Shown one piece after another: positions 894-63,357 of a stretch of 64,000 nt of DNA. The stretch is from a virus. Lineage: Duplodnaviria; Heunggongvirae; Uroviricota; Caudoviricetes. Every line of letters starts with the position of its first letter. The stretch's first letter is position 1. The position numbers were made by a program, and so were the translations under genes. The stretch lies in IMG/VR virus record IMGVR_UViG_2541047680_000004; one strand, given 5' to 3'. The notes below the pieces were generated by a model, which ran no database searches, was not told the DNA's origin, and worked only from the letters and a program-made list of their open reading frames with translations.

Positions 894-2156
894 ATGCCTT
901 TTTTAATTTTCATTATTATACTACTGCTCACCGTGATTTTTTGGGATTGGGTTGTTTTAAATGGTCAAATTGTTGGAACATTGGCTACAGCATTTGCTTT
1001 TATAGCAACAGCATGGAATGCCTACGAAGCGAGAAAAAGTGCAAAAGCAGCTTTTTCAGCCCTTCAATTAACAACAGAATCATTGTTCGAAATGCGAAAG
1101 AGTGCATTTAAACAATGGTTTGATTCCTTATTAAATCAACATGATGAGCTATGTCTTCTTGCAAAACAAATTATCGATAAACGCAAAATTAATTTAAACA
1201 GCGATGAGTTACATAGACTATATTACCCATTGGTAAAACAGCATGAGGTAATACAGTATGTGAAGCATATTATTAATATTTTTGAGTATGTGGATAGTTC
1301 ATTTTATATTGATGGGGAATGTCTAAAGGAAAAAAGAGCGTATGTGTCACAATTAATTTTCAAAATCCCACCTCAGATGAAGTTGATCATTGCTATCTTT
1401 GGATTAAAGATCGATTATTGTGAACATATTAATTCGGGAAAACTGTGTTGTTTATTAAATAAATATGATTTTTTCAATGATGAAATATTTTTTGATGATG
1501 CTTATTCAGATATGCCTTATCTGGATGCATTCATAAACCTTAGATTCAACAAAATATTCAAATCTCGAATGATAAATTATTTTGATAATATCATTAAAAG
1601 TTATTATGTTCCATCGGACGTTAAAAGGGACTGGATGTTTCGAGACCCAAAGCTCGTACCGTCGGTTCTTATGAATTATAAAACTCCTTGTTCTCCTATA
1701 ATTAATGATTACTTTGAGAAGTTGCCTTTACATGTAAGAAACTACTTTGAGGAACTACTTAAAACCGCGAATGATAGAGTTACTCATTTTGACGTTTACA
1801 TCCCACGCCTTATTGGTTGTTCAATCGTGCAACATTACGAAGATGTGCCTTCCGAAAAAAACAGGTTAAATGACAGGAATGATGTAATAGCTATGGCTGA
1901 AGATTACATCGAGAAAAGAAAATCTAATCAACTAGATTACATACTTGAAGATATATACTTCAAGAGTGACGAAGATATAATCCCAGGCCACCATTTGATT
2001 GTGGCATTTGATGACTATGAATTTAAATTATCACTCATTAAGATAAATGAGAATAAAGATAGCGATAATCTTTTAAATCGAATTTATACTGAATCCAGTA
2101 GCATGGTTAAAGAATATAAGCGCGAAATATTAAAACTGGGCGACTATGTAAAGTAA
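894..2156 (+). CDS. hypothetical membrane protein (two N-terminal TM helices plus about 360-aa soluble domain), low-GC orphan
   Basis: 420-aa ORF, strongly AT-rich relative to surroundings, opposite strand to neighbours, own terminator downstream; N-terminus FLIFIIILLLTVIFWDWVV / IVGTLATAFAFIATAW hydrophobic. Confidence 0.6.
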   Translation: MPFLIFIIILLLTVIFWDWVVLNGQIVGTLATAFAFIATAWNAYEARKSAKAAFSALQLTTESLFEMRKSAFKQWFDSLLNQHDELCLLAKQIIDKRKINLNSDELHRLYYPLVKQHEVIQYVKHIINIFEYVDSSFYIDGECLKEKRAYVSQLIFKIPPQMKLIIAIFGLKIDYCEHINSGKLCCLLNKYDFFNDEIFFDDAYSDMPYLDAFINLRFNKIFKSRMINYFDNIIKSYYVPSDVKRDWMFRDPKLVPSVLMNYKTPCSPIINDYFEKLPLHVRNYFEELLKTANDRVTHFDVYIPRLIGCSIVQHYEDVPSEKNRLNDRNDVIAMAEDYIEKRKSNQLDYILEDIYFKSDEDIIPGHHLIVAFDDYEFKLSLIKINENKDSDNLLNRIYTESSSMVKEYKREILKLGDYVK

Positions 2157-40520: not shown

Positions 40521-41396
40521 TTAAATTTTTACATTGGTCAGTGCAGCGATAGCCTTATCATGCTTATTCGCCAGAGAGCAGTACCACTTCACACGGGTAC
40601 GTACTGCGTCTTTGTTCTGTACAGTACCAATGTTTTCAACAACGATACCTGCGTTATCGCCGCCATACAGACCAGTAACGCCGTTCTCTTCTGACAGATG
40701 CAGGCAGTAGATGCTTGCTTTGCCAGCATCGGTCGGGATGAAGTCGTTGATGATGAACGGAACGCCGTTATGACACAGCATCGGACGACCAAAGTTCTCC
40801 ATCATGATTTCAGACGGACCTACGTTTACTGTACGCAGCAGCGCACGATAAGCACGCAGGTGCTCTGAACGCATCATGATGCAGTCAGCACCAAGATCTT
40901 TCACCGCATCGACCAGTTCGTCGAACATAGAGAAAGTCATAGATGCACCGGCGATATCGATCTTCTGATCTGCGTGCATCAGGCGTGGAATGCCGTCAAA
41001 CGCCTTGTTGTTGGAGCTGGAGTCACCCAAAATCAGGTTGCGACGGAACGCACGAGCCAGACCTTTAACTTTCTGACGAACCTGAATAGCCAACTGGTTG
41101 TTGGTGTCGGCCATAGTGGTCGCCAGGAATTTATCAACGTCTACGTCACCAGCCAGAATACGCAGTTTCGCAACGCATTCTTCGAAGGTTGCTGCACCTT
41201 CAGGGATGGTGTCGTTAACGTCGATGAAGGTAGCTTCACTCAGCGTTTTTTCACGGTTGTACAGATATGCCTTTGAATTAATTTTCATAAAAGGCAGGAT
41301 GGCAAACAGGTCATCGCGATCGATGATAGTTTCGATCACACCCTGTTCAAGTTCGTTGTTAGACAGCTTTTCAGCTTCTTCACGCAGTAATGGCAT
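40521..41396 (-). CDS. major capsid protein
   Basis: 291-aa ORF between scaffold and decoration genes; strong terminator hairpin after stop. Confidence 0.7.
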   Translation of the reverse strand: MPLLREEAEKLSNNELEQGVIETIIDRDDLFAILPFMKINSKAYLYNREKTLSEATFIDVNDTIPEGAATFEECVAKLRILAGDVDVDKFLATTMADTNNQLAIQVRQKVKGLARAFRRNLILGDSSSNNKAFDGIPRLMHADQKIDIAGASMTFSMFDELVDAVKDLGADCIMMRSEHLRAYRALLRTVNVGPSEIMMENFGRPMLCHNGVPFIINDFIPTDAGKASIYCLHLSEENGVTGLYGGDNAGIVVENIGTVQNKDAVRTRVKWYCSLANKHDKAIAALTNVKI

Positions 41397-46291: not shown

Positions 46292-47182
46292 TTATGCCGG
46301 TAAAGCAATTTCTAACGGTTTATCCAAAGGTTGTTTGTCGAATGCCAGCAGTGGCAGCGTGTCAGGCAGTCGACGGCCAAAGTCAGGGTTTCGGTACACA
46401 CCATACAACGGAGACGTAAAGCTCAGGTTGTGAATGTCCTTGAGCAGCTTCACAATGCTGGCCTCGTCCACCAGACTGTCGGCAATGTCCTGAATCGTCG
46501 TGCCACGATTCCGCCCAGCTTTTGCCAGGGAACTGTTCTTGTGGTAGTCCGCCACCAGATCACGCAGTGCACGGCGACGACGAGACTCGCTCATTGCGAA
46601 CAATTCTTTGACGATCGCCTCGTTATCACCCGGGTCGGAACGGAAATGGCGCTGGAATACACGCAGTGCACTTTCATAGCTCTTCGGTCGCTCAGGGCGG
46701 ATGAACTTAAACCCTGCTTTCATGGCGAAGGGATTGTATTTGCTCATCGAGGACTGGATCTCAATGATTGGCCGGTCATGCATCCTGCTAACCAGGTTAA
46801 TCATTCGATAAGAGACGCCTACGCCACGATACTGAGTATCCACAACTGAGCGACTGATCACCGCAAAGTTGTTATTCACGTACCGACCCCAGTACTGGTT
46901 AGCCACGGTGGTATTAGTGGTTGGTTTCAACTTAGGAAACATGCGGTGGCGAGGTGCCAGCAGTAGTTTCGGGTAAGCCATAACCACGACGCCCACCAGA
47001 CGGTCATCAAGTTCGCAGCGATAGTAAGTTGGCGCGAAAGGTTTGCCGTCTGTTTTGTAGTGAAGCGACTTAAGAGCGTGCCAGTCCTCTACAGTTCCCT
47101 TTGTGACAGTCATTCGCTCCAGAAAGTCCAGATGACGCGGAAACTCTTCAGGGCGGTAGCGTTTAATGATGATGTCCGTCAT
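46292..47182 (-). CDS. GNAT-fold acetyltransferase-like protein
   Basis: CoA-binding-type motif VVDTQYRGVGVSYRMINLV (R-G-x-G-x-S) in a 296-aa protein. Confidence 0.4.
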   Translation of the reverse strand: MTDIIIKRYRPEEFPRHLDFLERMTVTKGTVEDWHALKSLHYKTDGKPFAPTYYRCELDDRLVGVVVMAYPKLLLAPRHRMFPKLKPTTNTTVANQYWGRYVNNNFAVISRSVVDTQYRGVGVSYRMINLVSRMHDRPIIEIQSSMSKYNPFAMKAGFKFIRPERPKSYESALRVFQRHFRSDPGDNEAIVKELFAMSESRRRRALRDLVADYHKNSSLAKAGRNRGTTIQDIADSLVDEASIVKLLKDIHNLSFTSPLYGVYRNPDFGRRLPDTLPLLAFDKQPLDKPLEIALPA

Positions 47183-47844
47183 AAATGAACCTCATCATGA
47201 CTACCATTGTGATATTCCACCTTCACGCGTTCTTTGTAGTGCTTGGTGATCTGCATATCCGGGCGCAGCGCGTTCTTCAGGTCTTCGTGAGTCGTCGCCA
47301 CCATTACCGTCGCACCAACCTTTCGAGCGGCACGCTGGAGGTTAGATGCCACAACCTGAGCGGTTACACGGTCTAGAACAGCACCGAACTCGTCAGCAGC
47401 CCACACTTTAGCGCCTGACTCAATCAGTTTGGCAATCTTGAGACGATATTTCTGACCGTCTGACATTTCAGAAGGCTTGCGAACAAACAGATATGCATCG
47501 TTCAGACCAGCCATAGATAACAACCCAAGCGCATCGCTGGTCGTTTTGCCCAACTGATCGATGACGTTAACCTCATTATCGAAGGTAAAATCATCGATGG
47601 AGGCTACAGACAGCCCTTCATCCTTCATCTGTCGTTGCAACTCGCGCAGCACAACGGATTTGCCGGAACCGGATTGGCCGGTGATGTACACCACATCGCC
47701 CTGCTTCACTTCCAGCTCCAGATTGTCGTAAAGCGTCCACTCTTTTTCGTCCAGGCCAAGCCCGAACGACTCAGCGATTTCCAACGTGCGCGTGGTTTTA
47801 TTTACGCGTGTCTGAAACGATACGTTGATGATGTATTTGCTCAT
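47179..47844 (-). CDS. stand-alone ABC-type ATPase (nucleotide-binding domain only)
   Basis: Walker A GQSGSGKS, signature-like MSDGQKYR, Walker B VWAADEF, H-loop TTHED. Confidence 0.65.
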   Translation of the reverse strand: MSKYIINVSFQTRVNKTTRTLEIAESFGLGLDEKEWTLYDNLELEVKQGDVVYITGQSGSGKSVVLRELQRQMKDEGLSVASIDDFTFDNEVNVIDQLGKTTSDALGLLSMAGLNDAYLFVRKPSEMSDGQKYRLKIAKLIESGAKVWAADEFGAVLDRVTAQVVASNLQRAARKVGATVMVATTHEDLKNALRPDMQITKHYKERVKVEYHNGSHDEVHL

Positions 47845-48542
47845 ACAGCCATCTCCCCGGAAGAGATCTTCTCCGCATATGCCACAAATGCGTCTACCCC
47901 GCTTTCTCCCGTCATTTCTTCCATGTGGGCAAGCAAATCACCAACAACAATGGCAGAGCCAGCAGGAAGCGTTTTAAAGCCCAATACGTCGACAACACGT
48001 ACTTCTTCCGCTGCAACTTCACGACTGATCTCGGTGTGTTCATCCTTCTGTCGTTTAGTTTCTTCGCCAAGATCGATAACTAGCGAGTCGGTGTCCATTT
48101 CTTCTGTCATGCTGCCAACGAGAACATTCAACTCACGCTCTTCAAAGCCGAAAACCTCGATATCGTCCAGAACAAGCGACTCAAGCTCTTTCTGTAGCTT
48201 AATTGCATCGTAATCAATGCTGGCAAGTCGGTTATCTTCAAGGCGCTTCGCACGAACCTCGTCATCACTGAGATCATCGCGAACAATAACCGGTACGCGC
48301 TCAAGTCCAGCAAAAATTGCAGCCTCACGGCGGCCGTGGCCAGTAATAATTACGTCGTTCTTATCGACCGTAATTGGCTGGTCAAATCCGCGCTTTTTAA
48401 TGGCTGCGGCTAGATCTCGGATCTGCTGTTCATCATGCTTTTTGGCATTCATCTCATAGGGAATAAGATCTGCCGGGTCGCGATATACGATTTCAAACTT
48501 TTTGGTCATTACATACGCTCCTTGTAGTAGTCGACCAGCCAC
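47841..48542 (-). CDS. ParB N-terminal domain (ParB/Srx-like) protein
   Basis: ITGHGRREAA motif resembling the ParB GxxRxxA box. Confidence 0.6.
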   Translation of the reverse strand: MAGRLLQGAYVMTKKFEIVYRDPADLIPYEMNAKKHDEQQIRDLAAAIKKRGFDQPITVDKNDVIITGHGRREAAIFAGLERVPVIVRDDLSDDEVRAKRLEDNRLASIDYDAIKLQKELESLVLDDIEVFGFEERELNVLVGSMTEEMDTDSLVIDLGEETKRQKDEHTEISREVAAEEVRVVDVLGFKTLPAGSAIVVGDLLAHMEEMTGESGVDAFVAYAEKISSGEMAV

Positions 48543-49207
48543 ACCAGAGCCTCACCAGCGTTCTCCATTTCATTACCGGTGTTAATAGCCTGCTCTTTGA
48601 TGATGTTTTTTATGGTTTCTGCAACACGATCTGACGCATCGAAAGTTACTTTGAAGCGCATGGTCTGATGTTCCGCCCCCACACGTTCGGTTTTCTCTCG
48701 TTTGTCGGTATCGACAGGCTCATCACTACCACGAGACAACGCCTCCAGTGCTTCAAGGTCGATTGCCGCCTCTTTTGCTAAAACCATCGAGATTTCGTCG
48801 TCATACGGGGCGATTTCAGACAGTTGATAGTCAAGTTCTGACTGAATTTCTTCAATGAAGCGTTGCAATGCGATTTGGTCGTCTTCACCGTATCGCTCGT
48901 TGTCCACCAGTGACATCTGTTTAGCTACGACATCGCTAATTTTGCCCACAGAAAGCACTGGAACCGTTGAAATTCCTTGCTCAATAGCGGCACGCCAGCG
49001 ATGTTCGCCGCCGAGGATTTCAAAAAATCCATCTTCAAGTTCACGAGCCAAAATTGGCTTAAAAAAGCCCAATTTTTCGATAGAACCTTTCAGTTTTTCA
49101 AAATTCTGCGCACCAACCGAATTGGTGTTCCAGGTATTCGGGCGAAGGTTGGCAACATCAACCTGCAAAATCGTGATTTTTACATCCATTTTATTGCTAC
49201 AATCCAC
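48509..49207 (-). CDS. ParB N-terminal domain (ParB/Srx-like) protein
   Basis: ILGGEHRWRAA motif resembling the ParB GxxRxxA box. Confidence 0.6.
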   Translation of the reverse strand: MDCSNKMDVKITILQVDVANLRPNTWNTNSVGAQNFEKLKGSIEKLGFFKPILARELEDGFFEILGGEHRWRAAIEQGISTVPVLSVGKISDVVAKQMSLVDNERYGEDDQIALQRFIEEIQSELDYQLSEIAPYDDEISMVLAKEAAIDLEALEALSRGSDEPVDTDKREKTERVGAEHQTMRFKVTFDASDRVAETIKNIIKEQAINTGNEMENAGEALVWLVDYYKERM

Positions 49208-51180: not shown

Positions 51181-51603
51181 ATGAAATACTCGCTTCTCCC
51201 TCTACTAACGTTACCAGTGTTGATGCTTACCGCGTGCCAATCACGCCCAATATCAATCCATGACGCCAAACCAGCACCGCAGGCCAAAGTGTTCAAGTAT
51301 CAAAGCGCAGCGCCAGCTACGTTGGTGGTAATGAGAGACACAGGTTTTGTAGGAGCTGGATGTGATGCTTCCATTTTCATCAACGGCGAAACTGTCGCAA
51401 AACTGGCTACAGGCGAAAAAGCGACTTTCCATTTAAATGCCGGAGAATTAATTGTGGGTGCATCTCTTGAAGGTGCAGGTTTATGTGCTCTAAACCCCGC
51501 TCGTCAAGAGCGAGAAACGACTCTGAAGAATGGAGACACAAAAGCGTTCAGGGTGTTCACCAGCAATTCTGGTGACATCGACATTCTGCCAACAACTCTG
51601 TGA
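51181..51603 (+). CDS. lipoprotein
   Basis: Signal peptide MKYSLLPLLTLPVLMLTA-C lipobox. Confidence 0.55.
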   Translation: MKYSLLPLLTLPVLMLTACQSRPISIHDAKPAPQAKVFKYQSAAPATLVVMRDTGFVGAGCDASIFINGETVAKLATGEKATFHLNAGELIVGASLEGAGLCALNPARQERETTLKNGDTKAFRVFTSNSGDIDILPTTL

Positions 51604-51607
51604 TGAC

Positions 51608-52132
51608 ATGACAACCAAAGATATTACCTACGGTATCCAAGCTGAACTCTGGCCGCGAGATTACACTAACGTTGAAAAACTACTGATGTTCTGGCGCAGA
51701 GAACAAATTCCTGTAAGGGTCACTCTCGAAGATGGCCAGGCGTTTTGCATGTACGTTTATGGCCTCATGCCATCTCGTAACAAAGTTGACCTTTGCCCAG
51801 CCCCTTTTGACAAAGAAAATCGTATAAGGCTCCCACTTGAACGCATTAGTACAATTGAATCAGGTGTGGTTGACAGTATCGCTCACGATTTCAAAGGTCG
51901 ACTAACAGTTCACCCTGATTATGTCGATAATCGGCCATCACGCCGCGATTTTTTTGCAATTTGCAACCAAGCCTACAAAGCAAACAAATCTATAAGGGTG
52001 TACATGGCGGATGGCCGTGAAATTGAGGGGGTGTCAGCAGGCGCAGATGCTTGTCAGGTTACACTACGTGTCGAGAACGGTAGAAAAATAGTTGTTTTGT
52101 TCGATTGGGTTGAACGAATTTTGCCTTTTTGA
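51608..52132 (+). CDS. hypothetical protein
   Basis: 175-aa ORF (internal Met with reasonable spacing after lipoprotein stop). Confidence 0.45.
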   Translation: MTTKDITYGIQAELWPRDYTNVEKLLMFWRREQIPVRVTLEDGQAFCMYVYGLMPSRNKVDLCPAPFDKENRIRLPLERISTIESGVVDSIAHDFKGRLTVHPDYVDNRPSRRDFFAICNQAYKANKSIRVYMADGREIEGVSAGADACQVTLRVENGRKIVVLFDWVERILPF

Positions 52133-52135
52133 GTT

Positions 52136-52444
52136 ATGAAATCGATATTGTTACCACCATTATTTTTACTTTGCTCAGTTGCGGCAAATGCAATGGACTA
52201 TAAGCCTGTCATTCAGTCGCTGATGAATGACGTGTGCTCAACGTCTCAGAATGTATCAGTTTGCATGTATCAATTTTCGGCAGCCGTAAAAGCAGGAAAA
52301 GCGATAGGTGAGAATGTGGAACTGTGTAAGAAAGTGGCAAATGAAGAACGGGCAATGTTGGATTGCGAATCTAGCGAGTCATCGGCACAGTTCGTTGATG
52401 CGCTATTTGACACCAATCGTAAGGCTGTAGAGTCTGTTCAATAA
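52136..52444 (+). CDS. small secreted Cys-containing protein
   Basis: Signal peptide MKSILLPPLFLLCSVAANA; four Cys in mature part. Confidence 0.5.
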   Translation: MKSILLPPLFLLCSVAANAMDYKPVIQSLMNDVCSTSQNVSVCMYQFSAAVKAGKAIGENVELCKKVANEERAMLDCESSESSAQFVDALFDTNRKAVESVQ

Positions 52445-52458
52445 ATCTATAAGGTTAA

Positions 52459-52486
52459 TAACCGGCTAAGTCCGGTTATTATTTTT
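52459..52486 (+). terminator. rho-independent terminator
   Basis: aaccggctaagtccggtt hairpin followed by T-tract. Confidence 0.55.
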
Positions 52487-52726
52487 CACATCACTTCTTT
52501 ATATCTATAAATCAAATAATCTAAATATATAAGGTCGAAAGCCGGAATCGATTATTTATTTAGGGAACACCTTCGACGATCTCGCTTTTATTTCTAGGAC
52601 TTTCATCCCTGCAAAAAAAACTTAAAAAAACACTTGCAATCTTTTTTCGCGTATCGATAATTGAACTCGTCGAAAGCGAAGACGCTAACGACAATAAATT
52701 TTAAATTTACATAAGGAAAAATTATC

Positions 52727-53377
52727 ATGGCTAACATTATCATTTCTAAAAAGTCCATCATTGAAGCTGCATCTATTGTATCCGACGAGCTGCGCGAAAA
52801 AGCAGATCTGGCAACTCAAACATATAACGAACATTATAAAAATGGTACGCACACTAAAGCAGACAAAGCAAATATGCAAGCTGCGACCACTAAACTTGCT
52901 TACTTCATCAACAACGTCGTAAACGCAGTAGAAGACGAAAAATTATGCTCTGTTTTCTACTATGCGATTAAAGCAAGCAAACAAGCGCCAGAAGTATTTT
53001 TCCGTGATGCAATGACTAATAGTTATTCTCTGGAAAAACTGGTTTATCTGGTTAAATCAATTAAATCTGGTAAATGCGTTTATTCCGTCGCTGATATGTC
53101 TGGATCTCGTGTATTCGCTTTAATCGATATGATTAACGACGAGATCGACACGTTCACTAATGGCGCTGTTTTCGATTTAATGAATGAAGCTAAAAAAGCG
53201 TGTGAAATTAAATTGGACGCTGGCTATACTCAAGCCAACCAGTTGATCAATCTTTGCGAACGTCTTGGACTTGTTGAAAAAGTCAAAGGAGCTGGGAGTG
53301 CGAAAGCTGGTACTCAGCAATATCGCTTTATTAAAAATGATTTCTACAATTATTTAGCTGATGCTTTCAAAGCGTAA
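52727..53377 (+). CDS. hypothetical protein (AT-rich cassette gene 1)
   Basis: 216-aa ORF with AT-rich codon usage, strong RBS-like aaggaaaaa upstream. Confidence 0.5.
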   Translation: MANIIISKKSIIEAASIVSDELREKADLATQTYNEHYKNGTHTKADKANMQAATTKLAYFINNVVNAVEDEKLCSVFYYAIKASKQAPEVFFRDAMTNSYSLEKLVYLVKSIKSGKCVYSVADMSGSRVFALIDMINDEIDTFTNGAVFDLMNEAKKACEIKLDAGYTQANQLINLCERLGLVEKVKGAGSAKAGTQQYRFIKNDFYNYLADAFKA

Positions 53378-53425
53378 TTAATGGAATCAAGCGCCCACTA
53401 TGGGCGCTTTAAAGGAGCTTTAAAG

Positions 53426-53629
53426 ATGGTCAGCTATGACAAGATCCGCGCGGAATATCGCGCAAAGTATCGCGCTTATAAACTGGAATTAATCGATGAT
53501 TTGATCGCGCAACGCGACCAATTAAATTTTACGTTTTCTGATTTGCTTAACAACAAGCGAGATTGCAAGCGTAAACGTGAATACTTACGTTTAAGCGCAT
53601 TAATCGGAAAACTTCAAAATTCTATTTAA
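53426..53629 (+). CDS. hypothetical small protein (AT-rich cassette gene 2)
   Basis: 67 aa; start chosen at Met with aaggag RBS; track ORF 53381..53629 begins inside a hairpin. Confidence 0.4.
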   Translation: MVSYDKIRAEYRAKYRAYKLELIDDLIAQRDQLNFTFSDLLNNKRDCKRKREYLRLSALIGKLQNSI

Positions 53630-53648
53630 TTTTTTAAGGAGCTTAATC

Positions 53649-53879
53649 ATGTTTGTTCTTATCGCTGGCGTTAACGTCCATAATGAATATTATGTTAATC
53701 GCATCGCTGGGATCGCTGGTTACGCTGGGCGCGCAGTCGAGCTTATAGATGAAACGACGCGCAAAATTGACTTATTGAGCGACCAGGAGCGAAAAAAAGC
53801 AGACGTGAACGACGCTGATATATTTTTAATGTTAAAAGCGTTTGTAGAAATGGGATTTGAAATCAGTCTACATAAATAA
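53649..53879 (+). CDS. hypothetical small protein (AT-rich cassette gene 3)
   Basis: 76-aa ORF followed by terminator. Confidence 0.4.
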   Translation: MFVLIAGVNVHNEYYVNRIAGIAGYAGRAVELIDETTRKIDLLSDQERKKADVNDADIFLMLKAFVEMGFEISLHK

Positions 53880-53883
53880 AATC

Positions 53884-53908
53884 GAGCGCCCACTATGGGC
53901 GCTTTTTT
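53884..53908 (+). terminator. rho-independent terminator
   Basis: gagcgcccactatgggcgc hairpin + TTTTTT; same hairpin without T-tract at 53,389-53,410. Confidence 0.6.
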
Positions 53909-53930
53909 CGTTTCCAATACTCCCACCAAA

Positions 53931-53956
53931 ACGCGCCAATGATGGCGCGTTTTTTA
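53931..53956 (+). terminator. rho-independent terminator (second in tandem)
   Basis: acgcgccaatgatggcgcgt hairpin + TTTTTT. Confidence 0.55.
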
Positions 53957-54370
53957 TTGTCTTTAACTCACTCCAACAACATAAAAATAAGCGCCAAAAT
54001 AACGCCATAGACGCGCTTTTATATCCTTACCAGTACATACCCATTACTTAACACATTAACGCGCTTAAAACGCGTTATATTGCGCTATAGAGTATGGTTA
54101 ATCATTGGCTTTTAGTCTTGCTTTATGATCCGCGTTTATTTGTCGGCGCGGATCGGCATTTTGTTTTGTTCCGTATCCGCTCGCGTATTATGTGCGCGTG
54201 ATTTTTCACATAATCACACCACTTAATCACGTATGTGATTATGCTACGAAAGAAATCTGGATGTCTCAGGCGACGAAAGTCATCATAATTTTCCCCGCTC
54301 ACCTGTCCGACAACCGCTGGTTGGATTCCACCAGCTTCCCGATGTTTTTTCTACACAAAGGCGAATGCAG

Positions 54371-54450
54371 CCGTTTCCCGAAAAAATCCTGGCCGTTCCC
54401 CGTCGGCTCATGAATACGTTCCTCGCCGTTTCTGAAAATTTCCCTGCGGC
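54371..54450. repeat. iteron cluster A (3-4 direct repeats, consensus CCGTTTCCCGAAA)
   Basis: ccgtttcccgaaaa / ccgttccccgtcgg / ccgtttctgaaaat / ttccctgcgg spaced about 22-33 bp. Confidence 0.6.
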
Positions 54451-54495
54451 AGCTGGTGGCTATAGAGAAAGGGCCGTTTCTGGCCCTCTTCTCAG

Positions 54496-54978
54496 TTACA
54501 CGCCATCAAGGATGTGGATGCGGTTGCTTGCGTATACATTCAGCATAAAGTTAGCGCAAAACAGTTTCCATGTATCAACGCCAGCGGTATACGTAATGTT
54601 TTTGCATTTAATCGCATTGTTGGCGATCCGCATCCCCTGCGATACTGCTTCATCGTCGGAAAATTTGAACGACGATTGAGTTTTAATCCAGACAGAAATC
54701 TGCGTAGCAAACTCAATCAGCTTAGACTGGCAGAATCGCCCGGAGCGTACCGGGAAGACGAACGTTCCGAATCCAGAATTAACCACATATGCTTTCTCAA
54801 ATACCCTCGAGTAACGACGATTGCCAATGATGTCGCGTGCAATAATGCATTTTTCTTGTGCTGACAGTTCTACCGTCTCATTGTCGCGCCATGCACCAAG
54901 TACTCGTTTTTCAATGTCAGAGAACGTTACAGCGATATTGCCATGTGCGGGTGCGTTTACAGTAGCGATAAAATTCAT
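54496..54978 (-). CDS. hypothetical protein (small-gene cassette 1)
   Basis: 160-aa ORF; operator palindrome at 54,999-55,011 upstream. Confidence 0.45.
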   Translation of the reverse strand: MNFIATVNAPAHGNIAVTFSDIEKRVLGAWRDNETVELSAQEKCIIARDIIGNRRYSRVFEKAYVVNSGFGTFVFPVRSGRFCQSKLIEFATQISVWIKTQSSFKFSDDEAVSQGMRIANNAIKCKNITYTAGVDTWKLFCANFMLNVYASNRIHILDGV

Positions 54979-55328
54979 GATTAATTCCTTATCGTAAATA
55001 ACAAATTGTTTTCTTGTTGGTGTTAATTATCGTTGTACGAATAAGGCGTCAAAGTGGAAAGTTGCGGTAGCCGGACGGGAACAGGTGGGTTTGTCGGTTG
55101 CCTGGAGGTAAGAGGTTGGTGTTTTTAGCCTGCGGGAAACAGGATGGTCATTTAAGGCCACCAATGCTGATGGCCTTAATAATTATCGACCGATTACGCT
55201 AAGGATCTTTTCCTCAACTGATTTGTTGTTGCGACTAAACTGCCTTGCGTATCTGATGACAGAAGAGGCGTTTTGCTTTCTGACCATCTCGGCTCTTTCC
55301 TTCAGGCGTTTCTTGAAATCGCCCATAT

Positions 55329-60065: not shown

Positions 60066-62099
60066 TTACTTAACCTGGTGGCCAGGTTTAGCACCAGCAT
60101 CCGGGCTTAACAGGAAGATATCTTTCCCGCCGGGGCCAGCAGCCATCACCATGCCTTCAGAGATACCGAAGCGCATTTTACGCGGAGCCAGGTTAGCCAC
60201 CATAATTGTGTGACGACCAATCAGTGCCTGTGGGTCTGGATAAGCAGAACGGATGCCTGAGAAGACATTACGCTTTTCACCACCGAGATCCAGCGTCAGG
60301 CGCAGCAGCTTGTCAGAACCTTCAACAAACTCTGCGTTTTCAATCAGCGCCACGCGCAGGTCAACTTTAGCGAAGTCGTCAAAGGTGATGGTTTCCTGAA
60401 TCGGGTCGTCTGCCAGTGGGCCAGTTACCGGTGCGGCTGTGGCTTTCACTTCTTCTTTGGATGCTTCCACCAGTGCTTCCACCTGTTTCATATCGATACG
60501 GTTATACAATGCCTTGAACGGATTCACTTTATGGCCCAGCAGCGGTTGCTGGATACCATCCCAGGTCAGTTCTGTATTCAGGAATGCTTCTGCACGTTCA
60601 GTCAGTTTCGGCAGTACCGGTTTCAAGTAAGTCATCAGCACGCGGAACAGGTTAATGCCCATAGAGCAAATCGCCTGCAGATCGGCATCGCGTCCTTCCT
60701 GCTTCGCCACCACCCACGGAGCCTGTTCATCAACATAGCGGTTAGCCAGGTCAGCCAGTGCCATGATTTCACGGATAGCTTTACCAAATTCGCGGCTTTC
60801 CCATGCTTCGCCAATCACTTCAGCGGCATCAGTAAAGGTTTTGTACAGTTGCGGGTCAGCCAGTTCGCTTGCCAGCACGCCGTCAAAACGCTTGTTGATA
60901 AAGCCTGCATTACGGGAGGCCAGGTTAACCACTTTGTTCACGATATCGGCATTCACGCGCTGAACGAAATCCTCCAGGTTGAGATCGATATCATCAATGC
61001 GCGAAGAGAGTTTCGCAGTGTAGTAGTAACGCAGGCTGTCGGCGTCAAAATGATTCAGCCAGGTGCTGGCTTTAATAAAGGTACCGCGAGACTTAGACAT
61101 CTTCGCGCCGTTCACCGTCACATAGCCATGAACAAACAGGTTGGTCGGCTTGCGGAAGTTGCTGCCTTCCAGCATTGCTGGCCAGAACAGACTGTGGAAG
61201 TAAACAATATCTTTACCGATGAAGTGGTACAGCTCGGCGGTGGAGTCTTTCTTCCAGTATTCATCGAAGCTTACGCTGTCGCCGCGCTTGTCGCACAGAT
61301 TCTTGAAAGAACCCATATAGCCAATCGGCGCATCTAGCCAGACGTAGAAATATTTACCCGGCGCGTTCGGAATTTCAAAACCGAAATACGGCGCGTCGCG
61401 GGAGATATCCCACTGTTGCAGGCCAGATTCAAACCACTCCTGCATTTTATTTGCCACCTGCTCCTGCAACGCACCGCTGCGGGTCCATGCCTGCAACATT
61501 TCGCTGAAAGAGGGCAGATCAAAGAAGAAGTGTTCAGAATCACGCATTACCGGCGTAGCGCCAGAAACCACCGATTTCGGCTCGATCAATTCAGTCGGGC
61601 TGTAGGTCGCGCCGCAGACTTCGCAGTTATCGCCGTATTGATCCGGGGATTTACATTTCGGGCAGGTGCCTTTCACAAAACGATCCGGCAGGAACATGCC
61701 TTTTTCCGGGTCGTACAACTGAGAGATAGTGCGATTTTTAATAAAACCGTTCTCTTTCAGGCGAGTATAGATAAGCTCAGACAACTGACGGTTCTCTTCG
61801 CTGTGCGTCGAGTGATAGTTGTCATAGCTGATGTTAAAGCCTGCGAAATCAGTCTGGTGTTCCTGACTCATTTCGCCAATCATCTGCTCCGGTGTGATAC
61901 CAAGTTGCTGTGCTTTCAGCATGATCGGCGTACCGTGGGCATCGTCGGCACAGATGAAATTAACCTCGTGGCCGCGCATTCGCTGGTAACGAACCCAGAC
62001 ATCAGCCTGGATGTGCTCCAGCATATGGCCGAGGTGGATTGAGCCGTTAGCGTACGGCAGCGCGCACGTCACCAGAATTTTCTTCGCGACTTGGGTCAT
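60066..62099 (-). CDS. metG: methionyl-tRNA synthetase
   Basis: 677-aa product beginning [26 protein letters not shown] (HIGH motif) with KMSKS motif, matching enterobacterial MetG as recalled from memory; track ORF 60066..62228 has a spurious N-terminal extension. Confidence 0.95.
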
Positions 62100-62256
62100 A
62101 GTAGGCATTACTTCTTTGTAGTGAAAAGGGGCTTGATAGTAACAAAATGGCCTTATGTCTGCCATGTGATAACAGCATTTCTCATAAATGATTAAATGTC
62201 GCAGCTGGAGTACACTACAAGGCGACAATTGCGCAAATTAAAATAAAGGAGACGGG

Positions 62257-63357
62257 ATGAGCGAGTCCAAATCGCCGGATGCCCTGAGAGCAATGGTAGC
62301 CGGTACGCTGGCTAATTTTCAGCACCCAACCCTGAAACACAACCTGACTACGCTTAAAGCGTTACACCATGTTGCGTTGATGGATGACACACTGCATGTC
62401 GAACTAATCATGCCTTTCGTGTGGAATAAGCCTTTTGAAGACCTGAAAGAGCAATGTAGTGGTGATCTGCTCCGTATCACTGGCGCAAAGGCTATTGACT
62501 GGAAGCTGTCGTACAACATTGCCACGCTTAAGCGCGTCAAAAACCAACCAGGCATTAATGGTGTTAAGAATATTATCGCCGTAAGCTCAGGCAAGGGCGG
62601 TGTAGGCAAATCGTCCACAGCAGTAAACTTGGCACTGGCTTTGGCTGCTGAAGGTGCGAAAGTTGGTATTTTGGATGCCGATATCTATGGTCCATCAATT
62701 CCAACCATGCTGGGCGCGGAAAACCAACGTCCAACCTCACCGGACGGTACTCACATGGCACCTATCATGTCTCATGGCCTGGCAACCAACTCTATTGGTT
62801 ATCTGGTCACCGACGACAATGCAATGGTGTGGCGTGGACCGATGGCCAGCAAGGCGCTGATGCAGATGTTGCAGGAAACACTGTGGCCTGATCTGGACTA
62901 TCTCGTTCTCGATATGCCGCCGGGCACTGGTGATATTCAATTGACGCTGGCGCAGAACATTCCTGTAACTGGTGCGGTTGTGGTAACTACGCCGCAAGAC
63001 ATCGCGCTGATCGATGCGAAGAAAGGCATTGTGATGTTCGAAAAAGTCGAAGTGCCGGTACTAGGTATCGTCGAAAACATGAGTGTGCATATTTGCAGTA
63101 ACTGCGGTCATCACGAGCCAATTTTTGGCACCGGTGGCGCACAGAAACTGGCCGAGAAATACAACACGCAGTTGTTAGGCCAAATGCCACTTCATATCTC
63201 TCTTCGTGAAGATCTGGATAACGGAACACCAACCGTTATTAGTCGTCCAGATAGCGAATTTACGGCTATTTATCGTGACCTCGCAGATCGCGTTGCTGCC
63301 CAAATGTATTGGCAAGGTGAAGTAATACCTGGCGAAATCGCATTCCGCGCAGTGTGA
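62257..63357 (+). CDS. apbC: Fe-S cluster carrier ATPase Mrp/ApbC
   Basis: Product ...SPDALRAMVAGTLANFQHPTLKHNLTTLKALHHV... with P-loop SGKGGVGKSS and CxxC (CSNCGHH); divergent from metG as in E. coli. Confidence 0.9.
   Translation: MSESKSPDALRAMVAGTLANFQHPTLKHNLTTLKALHHVALMDDTLHVELIMPFVWNKPFEDLKEQCSGDLLRITGAKAIDWKLSYNIATLKRVKNQPGINGVKNIIAVSSGKGGVGKSSTAVNLALALAAEGAKVGILDADIYGPSIPTMLGAENQRPTSPDGTHMAPIMSHGLATNSIGYLVTDDNAMVWRGPMASKALMQMLQETLWPDLDYLVLDMPPGTGDIQLTLAQNIPVTGAVVVTTPQDIALIDAKKGIVMFEKVEVPVLGIVENMSVHICSNCGHHEPIFGTGGAQKLAEKYNTQLLGQMPLHISLREDLDNGTPTVISRPDSEFTAIYRDLADRVAAQMYWQGEVIPGEIAFRAV

Follow-up and report, generated by a model that had tools for sequence, protein, structure and literature searches.

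A probable high-output operon of SSU5-type phage-plasmids with a hairpin-bounded slot for optional small genes

The DNA stretch analysed here, referred to as the window, is the whole of the 64,000-nucleotide (nt) IMG/VR virus record IMGVR_UViG_2541047680_000004, and the locus of interest is a block of three genes punctuated by similar hairpins near positions 52,450 to 54,200. The block and its regulatory sequences probably make up an independent operon of SSU5-type phage-plasmids, geared to high output and off in lysogeny, with a slot for optional genes, bounded by hairpins, at its end. Identity of the flagged region is 99.8-99.9% with the Escherichia coli plasmid pECOH89 and its relatives and 83-97% with the phages SSU5, Cyrano, PhiR41_1 and CMS-2020a. 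A more sensitive search found the unit in 812 plasmid records, and 12 phage records carry it as well. Because the unit matches pECOH89-type plasmids and these 812 records, the window is a phage-plasmid of the SSU5/pHCM2/pMT1 type. The plasmids that carry the unit come from Klebsiella, Escherichia, Enterobacter, Yersinia (pMT), Salmonella (pHCM2), Citrobacter and Cronobacter, and include pMT of Y. pestis and pHCM2 of S. Typhi. The cassette is present in 240 of 5,426 complete E. coli genomes (about 4%), and is plasmid-borne in every case. Elements of this type are common in clinical Enterobacterales, and most of their genes are without a known function; in the annotation of pECOH89 all three genes of the block are listed as hypothetical proteins. 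Family elements can also bear resistance genes, as pECOH89 carries CTX-M-15 (PMC3999498).

About 200 related loci were gathered by DNA similarity, exact protein look-up, a search for the hairpin, and similarity to the gene 1 protein, the last being a retrieval route that is unbiased with respect to the hairpin. The features of the unit in the window are given below, with predicted folding energies and z scores relative to shuffled sequence for the hairpins (HP for the three that share a stem family), lengths in base pairs (bp) or amino acids (aa), and isoelectric points (pI) for the small proteins.

52456..52481, + strand: terminator-like hairpin and T-tract, a 10-bp stem followed by TTTTT (-12.6 kcal/mol, z -3.5)
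52613-52631, + strand: A/T-rich, UP-like tract directly 5' of the -35 box
52634..52661, + strand: predicted sigma-70-type promoter from a promoter scan, with TTGCAA (52634-52639), a 16-nt spacer and GATAAT (52656-52661)
52669..52692, + strand: stem-loop of the 5' untranslated region (UTR), GTCG-AA-AGCG-AAGA-CGCT-AA-CGAC (-9.8 kcal/mol, z -3.9)
52727..53377, + strand: gene 1, 216 aa, the constant gene of the unit, with a strong Shine-Dalgarno box
53389..53409, + strand: HP1, the internal core hairpin (-15.1 kcal/mol, z -2.9)
53426..53629, + strand: gene 2, 67 aa, basic (pI 9.7), an optional slot gene of family F0
53636..53641, + strand: Shine-Dalgarno box of gene 3, within the repeated joint TTTTTTAAGGAGCTTAATCATG; left breakpoint of a gene 3 allele replacement and right end of a gene 2 insertion or deletion (indel)
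53649..53879, + strand: gene 3, 76 aa, acidic (pI 5.2), an optional slot gene of family F1
53884..53910, + strand: HP2, the terminal core hairpin (hairpin 53884-53904), with a T6-CG tail (-15.5 kcal/mol, z -4.4)
53928..53959, + strand: HP3 (hairpin 53928-53953), an 11-bp stem with a T-tract (-16.7 kcal/mol, z -4.9)

The original prediction, made from the letters of the window, described a markedly AT-rich cassette of three genes with a hairpin that occurs twice in identical form, once without and once with a T-tract. All three open reading frames (ORFs) lie where it placed them, and the GC content of the block is 0.33-0.40 in 300-nt windows, as opposed to about 0.45-0.50 in the flanks. The 19-mer AGCGCCCACTATGGGCGCT occupies 53390-53408 and 53885-53903 and has no other copy in the 64 kb; 0.02 matches to it are expected by chance, none of 100 shuffles has 4 or more, and the repeat extends to 34 nt at 88% identity. 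HP1 indeed lacks a T-tract, with a T-run of only 3 in the tail TTTAAAGGAG, and it runs straight into the Shine-Dalgarno box of gene 2 (AAGGAG, 53412-53417). HP2 is followed by six T residues, and a scan of both strands finds it terminator-like on the minus strand too. HP3 lies 44 nt after HP2 and has a related stem, ACGCGCCA...TGGCGCGT. Both HP2 and HP3 combine a stem with a T-tract and stand in the proper orientation at the end of the operon, for which HP2 is the predicted main intrinsic terminator and HP3 the predicted second, back-up terminator.

Less remains of the longer series of hairpins that had been proposed downstream. Of three further GCGC-stemmed hairpins, the one at 53931-53956 is HP3, but the other two fold no better than shuffled sequence: the one at about 53,985-54,015 reaches -6.2 kcal/mol (z -1.6), which 15 of 200 shuffles equal, and the one at about 54,055-54,085 has a z score of -0.4, with 71 of 200 shuffles folding equally well. 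Among the inverted repeats said to continue up to 54,250, two hold up in the window and in its close relative Cyrano, one at 54126-54155 (z -3.8) and one at 54209-54243 (z -4.0), but more distant relatives do not keep them. The interval 52000-55200 holds 10 terminator-like sites, compared with 3.5 +/- 1.9 in shuffles. In the window, only HP1, HP2 and HP3 have a stem of the GCGCC(C)A...T(G)GGCGC family, and the other 7 terminator-like hairpins have unrelated stems. An Rfam scan of 52300-54700 at permissive E-values produced no match that reaches the gathering threshold; the best, Hrs1, scores 29.4 bits against a threshold of 56.4, and the sub-threshold matches are shaped like generic double terminators.

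The comparison of related loci reveals a rule for the hairpin. In nearly all of the 97 loci with a complete 3' end of gene 1, a hairpin follows 6-13 nt past the gene 1 stop codon. When there is no small gene downstream, the hairpin is followed by a full T-tract, TTTTT(C)GTTTC. When there is one, the tail is TTTAAAGGAG, (A)GTTTTAAGGA, TTTTAAGGAT or similar, such that the shortened T-tract becomes the start of the Shine-Dalgarno box, and the small slot gene ends with its own copy of the hairpin and then TTTTTCGTTT. The general form of the joint is hairpin-TTT(T)AAGGAGCTTAATC-ATG. Counted over distinct sequences, the median length of the uninterrupted T-run is 6 at terminal copies (n=37) and 1 at internal copies (n=25, maximum 4). 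A locus in which gene 1 is only 50% identical shares, letter for letter, a 31-nt string that spans the GCGCCCA stem and the T-tract as far as CGTTTCCA. Some lineages have, in place of HP3, 2-3 copies of the canonical hairpin at a spacing of 44-49 nt with no ORF between them. This comparative anatomy, in which the shortened internal T-run merges into the Shine-Dalgarno box, lends support at the level of sequence to the suggestion that the hairpins are attenuator-like or RNA-processing-like structures. Matches to ordinary phage functions and hairpins that lack conservation had been named as grounds for discarding the original prediction; the proteins are without such matches, and the hairpin is the most conserved sequence of the locus.

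The terminator-like hairpin at 52456-52481, the core of which (CCGGCTAAGTCCGG) is retained in relatives, would close the preceding operon and insulate the cassette at its 5' side. The predicted promoter recurs as TTGxxx, a 16- or 17-nt spacer and xATAAT, preceded by an A/T tract, in all lineages examined, with gene 1 identity down to 49%. The UTR stem-loop begins at a distance of 1-4 nt from where transcription is predicted to start. Twenty distinct sequences form an alignable group, and 92.5% of their cells pair in the stem-loop, against 12-41% in slid controls, and its outer pair covaries, being A-U in 16 and G-C in 4. Diverged lineages have another hairpin at the equivalent position, so that every lineage examined has a 5' stem-loop. 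The poly-A runs within the tract at 52613-52631 vary in length between relatives that have more than 99% identical gene 1, and this variation upstream of the -35 box could tune promoter strength. Between the cassette and an upstream gene for a FljA-like protein lies an ORF of 102 aa with a signal-peptide-like N-terminus (52136-52444, + strand). The spacing from the FljA-like gene to gene 1 falls into two classes, 297-334 nt and 597-645 nt, as would be expected if some loci have an ORF such as this one and others lack it.

Gene 1 belongs to PHROG 1513, which is labelled as of unknown function, and matches nothing in Pfam, NCBIfam or PADLOC. An exhaustive hidden Markov model search of 1.84 billion proteins finds a narrow family of 23 cluster representatives with no distant annotated relatives, and a sequence-profile search of the PDB with the gene 1 alignment has no match. 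Gene 1 spans the diversity of this element family yet is without relatives in the rest of the protein universe. In the AlphaFold2 model (predicted local distance difference test score, pLDDT, of 82), the N-terminal part is helical and the C-terminal domain is winged-helix-like; the structural matches of the model are to winged-helix proteins only, and none is significant over the whole protein. The most conserved segment is the predicted recognition helix, YTQANQLI, which is invariant in 19 sequences with identities down to 54%. Gene 1 probably encodes an abundant winged-helix protein that binds nucleic acid. The ratio of nonsynonymous to synonymous substitution rates (dN/dS) is 0.09 for gene 1, 0.06-0.07 for gene 2 and 0.12-0.44 for gene 3, and the three are therefore real genes.

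From its composition, the block had been taken for a foreign cassette. The GC content is 0.376 over 52450-53910 and 0.462 over the whole window, and gene 1 has the third-lowest GC content of the 59 ORFs in the window and the second-lowest GC content at third codon positions (GC3, 0.34). The codon analysis that had been proposed as a check points the other way. By a general list of E. coli optimal codons, gene 1 has a frequency of optimal codons (Fop) of 0.63, the sixth-highest of the 59, and is close to several of the ORFs with top values; the highest, 0.74, belongs to the ORF at 40521-41396, which has weak capsid-like Pfam matches. The codon use of gene 1 fits adaptation to high expression in the host, not recent import. 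Because its low GC content goes with a high Fop, the AT-richness of the cassette is a matter of A/U-ending optimal codons and A/T-rich regulatory DNA, not of foreign origin. The presence of the unit in 812 plasmid records from at least six enterobacterial genera and in phages likewise contradicts the claim. A related explanation, that the block is a recently acquired island, or a moron expressed from the prophage to the benefit of the host, would account for the GC contrast and for the unit having its own promoter and terminators. It is nevertheless highly improbable, given that gene 1 is found across the diversity of the family, in at least five genera and at identities down to 49%, and uses host-optimal codons. 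Furthermore, the unit is silent in the Cyrano lysogen and is missing from the list of morons in that study; it has the promoter and terminators of a moron but neither the variable presence nor the transcription from the prophage. The compositionally atypical gene of the window is not in the flagged cassette at all but is the ORF at 894-2156 (+ strand, 420 aa), with a GC content of 0.32, a GC3 of 0.29 and the lowest Fop of the window, 0.34; it has no Pfam match.

The slot downstream of gene 1 is filled by two families only, F0 (63-67 aa, gene 2 in the window) and F1 (70-79 aa, gene 3). Among 99 loci, the slot holds F0 in 38, F1 in 22, F0 followed by F1 in 18 and F1 twice in 2, and no gene was detected in 19, a class that may hide small genes missed by the Shine-Dalgarno filter, such as a 64-aa gene in the locus L008. 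In total, F0 is present in 56 of the 99 loci and F1 in 42. The window has both; SSU5 has only F0, and pMT of Y. pestis, pHCM2 and Cyrano have only F1. Gene 2 belongs to PHROG 6145, and its homologues are mostly on contigs of phage-plasmid size. The PHROG label, MIT family metal ion transporter, was rejected, as it is without Pfam support and is implausible for a soluble, basic protein of 67 residues; gene 2 probably encodes a simple helical hairpin. Gene 3 belongs to PHROG 1585, labelled as of unknown function, and its AlphaFold2 model (pLDDT 54) is unusable for a fold search. Within gene 3, a 9-nt tandem repeat, ATCGCTGGG, at 53703-53729 encodes (Ile-Ala-Gly)n, and the number of copies varies between relatives to give proteins of 70, 73, 76 and 79 aa.

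Genes 2 and 3 had also been suggested to be a toxin-antitoxin-like pair. Two small neighbouring ORFs, one for a basic and one for an acidic protein, on a plasmid-like replicon would suit an addiction or defence pair, and genuine toxin-antitoxin systems occur elsewhere in the element family (KacT, RelE and HicAB in Cyrano). The distribution over the 99 loci speaks against this reading, as F0 and F1 are each found alone more often than together (38, 22 and 18 loci) and are not an obligate pair; SSU5 and pHCM2 have one gene each. Neither gene reaches threshold for a toxin, antitoxin or defence family in Pfam, NCBIfam or PADLOC. Both lack a promoter of their own and lie behind a terminator that is presumed to be leaky, and the homologue in the Cyrano lysogen is silent, whereas the real toxin-antitoxin genes of Cyrano are expressed 6- to 60-fold over background. 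The claim of a pair is accordingly not upheld, and of all the explanations considered here an addiction or defence function seems the most remote.

The boundaries of the slot genes coincide with the joints. Breakpoints were located from junction sequences and 25-nt identity profiles of the window against three related loci, L039, L007 and L097. Relative to L039, both flanks of the window are 96-100% identical, but identity falls to 32-72% exactly from the Shine-Dalgarno box of gene 3 to HP2. Gene 2 is present or absent as a clean indel of about 225 nt, both between the window and Cyrano and between the window and L007. Two loci, L097 and L046, have the order hairpin-F1-hairpin-F1-hairpin, in which a composite joint, GCGCCCACTATGGGCGC-TTT(T/A)AAGGAGCTTAATCATG, is repeated. 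Between the window and a Klebsiella element, the synonymous divergence (dS) is 0.15 for gene 3, 0.96 for gene 1 and 2.26 for the convergent gene that follows the unit. The value for gene 3 lies far below the other two, and therefore a cassette moved recently between diverged backbones.

Such exchange might suggest a mini-integron, in which the hairpins are the sites of a dedicated site-specific recombinase that captures promoterless cassettes behind a fixed promoter. The formal likeness to an integron is strong and consists of promoterless small ORFs, each with the same palindromic element at its 3' end, in a variable array of 0-2 cassettes behind one strong promoter, and of exchange between diverged backbones. 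However, an attC site is an imperfect palindrome of 57-141 nt with R''/L''/L'/R' boxes, a GTTRRRY core and extrahelical bases, whereas the hairpin here is a perfect palindrome of 17-21 nt with a 3-nt loop and without the core. Only two cassette families are found, and the annotation of pECOH89 has no integrase or other recombinase in the 6 kb to either side of the locus, although not every ORF of the window was scanned for one. On the left, the breaks lie in the Shine-Dalgarno box and also in the hairpin, a pattern that fits exchange driven by homology. A paper on integron sites in phages makes no mention of these hairpins. A dedicated recombinase is very unlikely.

The stems of the core hairpin are conserved to an unusual degree. 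Exact GCGCCCA and TGGGCGC stems are found in 52 of 56 distinct sequences that were retrieved independently of the hairpin; a 53rd, L174, combines these stems with a loop of 4 nt, and L008 and L009 have a different hairpin at that position. The stems are 100% identical where the adjoining 60 nt of gene 1 are only 44% identical, and they are unchanged between the window and SSU5, for which dS is 1.0-1.2 in genes 1 and 2 and synonymous sites are saturated. The exact 17-mer is found in 104 IMG/VR stretches, and 94 of these match at least one cassette gene, with the copies clustering at the cassette locus; the other 10 are unrelated contexts, mostly of high GC content, at about the level of chance. 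The 3-nt loop does vary, with CTA in 37 cases, TAG in 8 and six other variants, and TAG is the exact inversion of CTA. Both loop orientations occur at both positions in elements with more than 99% identical gene 1, so that loop inversion is fast relative to point substitution. The loop of HP3 also flips (ATGA/TCAT, TTGT/ACAA), and the HP3 stem changes between distant lineages. As a separate observation, two unrelated IMG/VR contigs with a GC content of 0.51 (L026, 2120-2230; L102, 500-610) contain the same hairpin, GCGCCCATAGTGGGCGC. Ahead of it are a sister hairpin, CTGCCCATAGTGGGCAG, and a TATAAT box, and after it comes ATTTTAGGAG-N7-ATG, so that another phage has a comparable layout of a hairpin and then a Shine-Dalgarno box.

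The constancy of the stems raises the question of whether GCGCCCA-N3-TGGGCGC is a specific binding site, as DNA or as an RNA hairpin, for a dimeric protein encoded by the family, of which the product of gene 1 would be the simplest choice. Binding at the palindrome, besides or instead of termination, would control termination, read-through, message stability or a DNA transaction there. Constant stems at a dS of about 1 around a free and invertible 3-nt center are the pattern expected of two half-sites with an uncontacted spacer, and the stem of HP3, which is a terminator at the same location, differs from lineage to lineage. The hairpin always adjoins gene 1, the putative recognition helix is the most conserved segment of the protein, and the structural matches include winged-helix dimers that bind palindromes (RTP, PadR/LmrR and TubR). 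Moreover, the 2-3 identical copies of some lineages are spaced at 44-49 nt with no ORF between them. On the other hand, every copy has the anatomy of an intrinsic terminator in the right place and orientation, and the promoter region, read directly, has no copy of a half-site. L008 and L009 have altered HP1 stems and an unchanged recognition helix. Slow change could also result from homogenisation among multiple copies or from selection against single mismatches in a short stem. A binding site is on these grounds an unlikely explanation, albeit one with more in its favor than an integron-like, foreign or addiction origin. Much the same low probability attaches to a broader proposal, that the hairpin is a sequence-specific element which all SSU5-type phage-plasmids leave unaltered because a conserved factor, most simply the neighbouring winged-helix protein, recognises its two half-sites, and that the hairpin/Shine-Dalgarno joint represents an undescribed, integrase-free cassette system that moves small genes by template switching or short-homology exchange.

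The closest described system is that of the promoter-early stem-loops (PeSLs) of T4-type phages, in which motifs of a promoter and a terminator stem-loop flank small ORFs and mediate modular shuffling (Arbiol et al. 2010, PMC2839356; Comeau et al. 2014, PMC4122927). As with PeSLs, short conserved regulatory motifs with a terminator stem-loop stand on either side of small, non-essential ORFs of unknown function, and the motifs bound insertions, deletions and replacements between close relatives, consistent with recombination between motifs. The locus is nonetheless not a PeSL. A PeSL combines the terminator with a strong early sigma-70 promoter, whereas here there is a stem-loop and a Shine-Dalgarno box only, with about 17 nt from hairpin to ATG, which leaves no room for a promoter, and a single promoter upstream of gene 1. 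PeSLs are dispersed over hyperplastic regions, whereas here 1-4 copies occur at one locus (two core copies and one related copy in the window), the slot genes rely on read-through from the one upstream promoter, and the element is a siphovirus-type phage-plasmid.

Other parts of the unit resemble well-known RNA elements. With a G+C-rich stem of 8-11 bp, a loop of 3-4 nt, a T-tract at HP2 and HP3, and a position at the end of an operon facing a convergent gene, the hairpins are like intrinsic terminators, and HP1, with the same stem and a shortened T-run, is like an attenuating intercistronic terminator. Ordinary terminators drift, whereas this stem is invariant at saturated synonymous sites and is re-used at each cassette boundary. 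The 5' UTR of ompA is stabilised by a 5'-terminal stem-loop, and repetitive extragenic palindromes (REPs) are 3' hairpins that stabilise upstream cistrons; the unit has a hairpin a few nt from its predicted 5' end and a stable hairpin right after the first cistron, for which position and conservation suggest similar functions. Minute inversions of loops at hairpins have examples in chloroplasts, and HP1, HP2 and HP3 likewise have 3-4-nt loops in both orientations (CTA/TAG, ATGA/TCAT and TTGT/ACAA). To our knowledge, loop inversion has not been described for terminators of phage-plasmids. Template-switch mutagenesis at quasipalindromes, which has been studied in E. coli (e.g. PMC7202029), is a further parallel. 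These comparisons support a reading of the locus as a set of terminator-based joints for modular shuffling with a putatively leaky internal terminator, the leakiness being suggested by the comparison itself.

Expression data from a relative bear on when the operon is used. RNA-seq of Cyrano in E. coli LF82 places both CYRAN_113 (gene 1) and CYRAN_112 (F1) at the detection floor in LB (PMC9928086, S1 Table), with log2(FPKM+5) values of 2.32-2.78, where FPKM is fragments per kilobase per million reads and 2.32 corresponds to zero. Expression of both is also low in culture medium, and at 6 h in macrophages the values are 5.5-5.7 and 4.4-4.9, with gene 1 above the slot gene, whereas the repressor, like the real toxin-antitoxin genes of Cyrano, is expressed 6- to 60-fold over background (PMC9928086). 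Silence in a lysogen of a promoter that looks strong and constitutive implies repression. A literature search found no lytic-cycle transcriptome of an SSU5-type element, and a 2026 preprint on heteroresistance was set aside as a source, as it concerns an unrelated 49-kb phage-plasmid. A possible lead on regulation is the FljA-like gene at 51530-52132 (+ strand), which encodes a full-length protein of the FljA family ("repressor of phase-1 flagellin", PF03614, E = 2.5e-84) with a weak Hfq-like C-terminal match. In 72 of 76 loci the gene stands upstream of the cassette in the same orientation, and in the Cyrano lysogen it is expressed and the cassette silent. The FljA family acts on the 5' UTR of an mRNA, and the protein could regulate the cassette or could act on the flagellin of the host.

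In the proposed mechanism, infection or induction would lead to expression of the operon from its strong promoter. The 5'-terminal stem-loop and the 3' hairpin would stabilise the gene 1 message, which would be translated efficiently from a strong Shine-Dalgarno box and host-optimal codons. HP1 would act as a leaky terminator, as a barrier to 3' decay, or as both, such that gene 1 is made in excess over the slot genes, which would be produced at a lower level by read-through and from Shine-Dalgarno boxes right after a hairpin. HP2 and HP3 would then stop the remaining strong transcription ahead of the convergent gene. The hairpin/Shine-Dalgarno joints would serve as crossover points, by short homology or template switching, for the gain, loss and exchange of cassettes, and the same kind of event inside one hairpin would flip its loop; crossover at the joints would explain both cassette exchange and the frequent loop flips.

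Several points weigh against this account of a high-output, lysogeny-silent operon. The promoter, the transcription start, the efficiency of termination at HP1 and the timing of expression are predictions, and crossover at a hairpin of 17-19 nt is deduced from breakpoints. The expression data come from one relative, which is 92% identical and lacks gene 2, in the lysogenic state only. Terminator function alone does not account for HP1 and HP2 stems that are invariant at a dS of about 1, and a further constraint is indicated, because an ordinary terminator should drift by compensatory change, as HP3 does. The reliance of the Fop values on a general codon list and the small genes that the class of empty slots may hide count on the same side.

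If the account holds, the locus would be a second example, outside the T4-type phages, of regulatory stem-loops that serve as joints for modular shuffling. A hairpin followed directly by a Shine-Dalgarno box would be a compact natural design to set the expression ratio of cistrons, and loop orientation may provide a simple marker of template-switch events in natural populations. The locus offers a handle on a conserved expression unit that is apparently repressed in lysogeny, and current understanding is not overturned.

The non-coding region downstream of HP3 contains further conserved features, of which the two motifs are listed for the shared intergenic region and not as established members of the unit.

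54369-54384, + strand: conserved non-coding motif AGCCGTTTCCCGAAAA, essentially invariant in 12 lineages
54425-54449, + strand: conserved non-coding motif GCCGTTTCTGAAAATTTCCCTGCGG, essentially invariant in 12 lineages
54465..54493, - strand: terminator of the convergent 160-aa gene (54496-54978, - strand) and right-hand limit of the intergenic region (-17.7 kcal/mol, z -3.6)

Across the 12 lineages, AGCCGTTTCCCGAAAA and TTTCCCTGCGG hardly vary at all, including those with only about 30% identity in the neighbouring 160-aa protein. Direct repeats of GCCGTTTC(C/T) begin at 54370, 54392, 54425 and 54473, and to judge from the sequence they look like iterons or protein-binding sites. A replication origin or partition site was considered as a possible reading of these repeats. 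About 200-250 nt past the gene 1 stop codon in one related locus (L045), GCGTTTTAGC is present three times in tandem, and relatives have one or two copies.

Two other modules of the window are shared with relatives. At 47179-49189 (- strand), just upstream of the flagged region, two proteins with ParB N-terminal domains and an ABC-type ATPase are encoded divergently from a DEAD/UvsW-like helicase, and this module adjoins the cassette in most relatives too. At 60066-63357, beside a HumD/S24-type gene, the phage-plasmid carries its own copies of two housekeeping genes of the host, metG, for methionyl-tRNA synthetase, and apbC/mrp, an arrangement common to about 190 E. coli plasmids, to which the chromosomal copies match at 90-95% identity.

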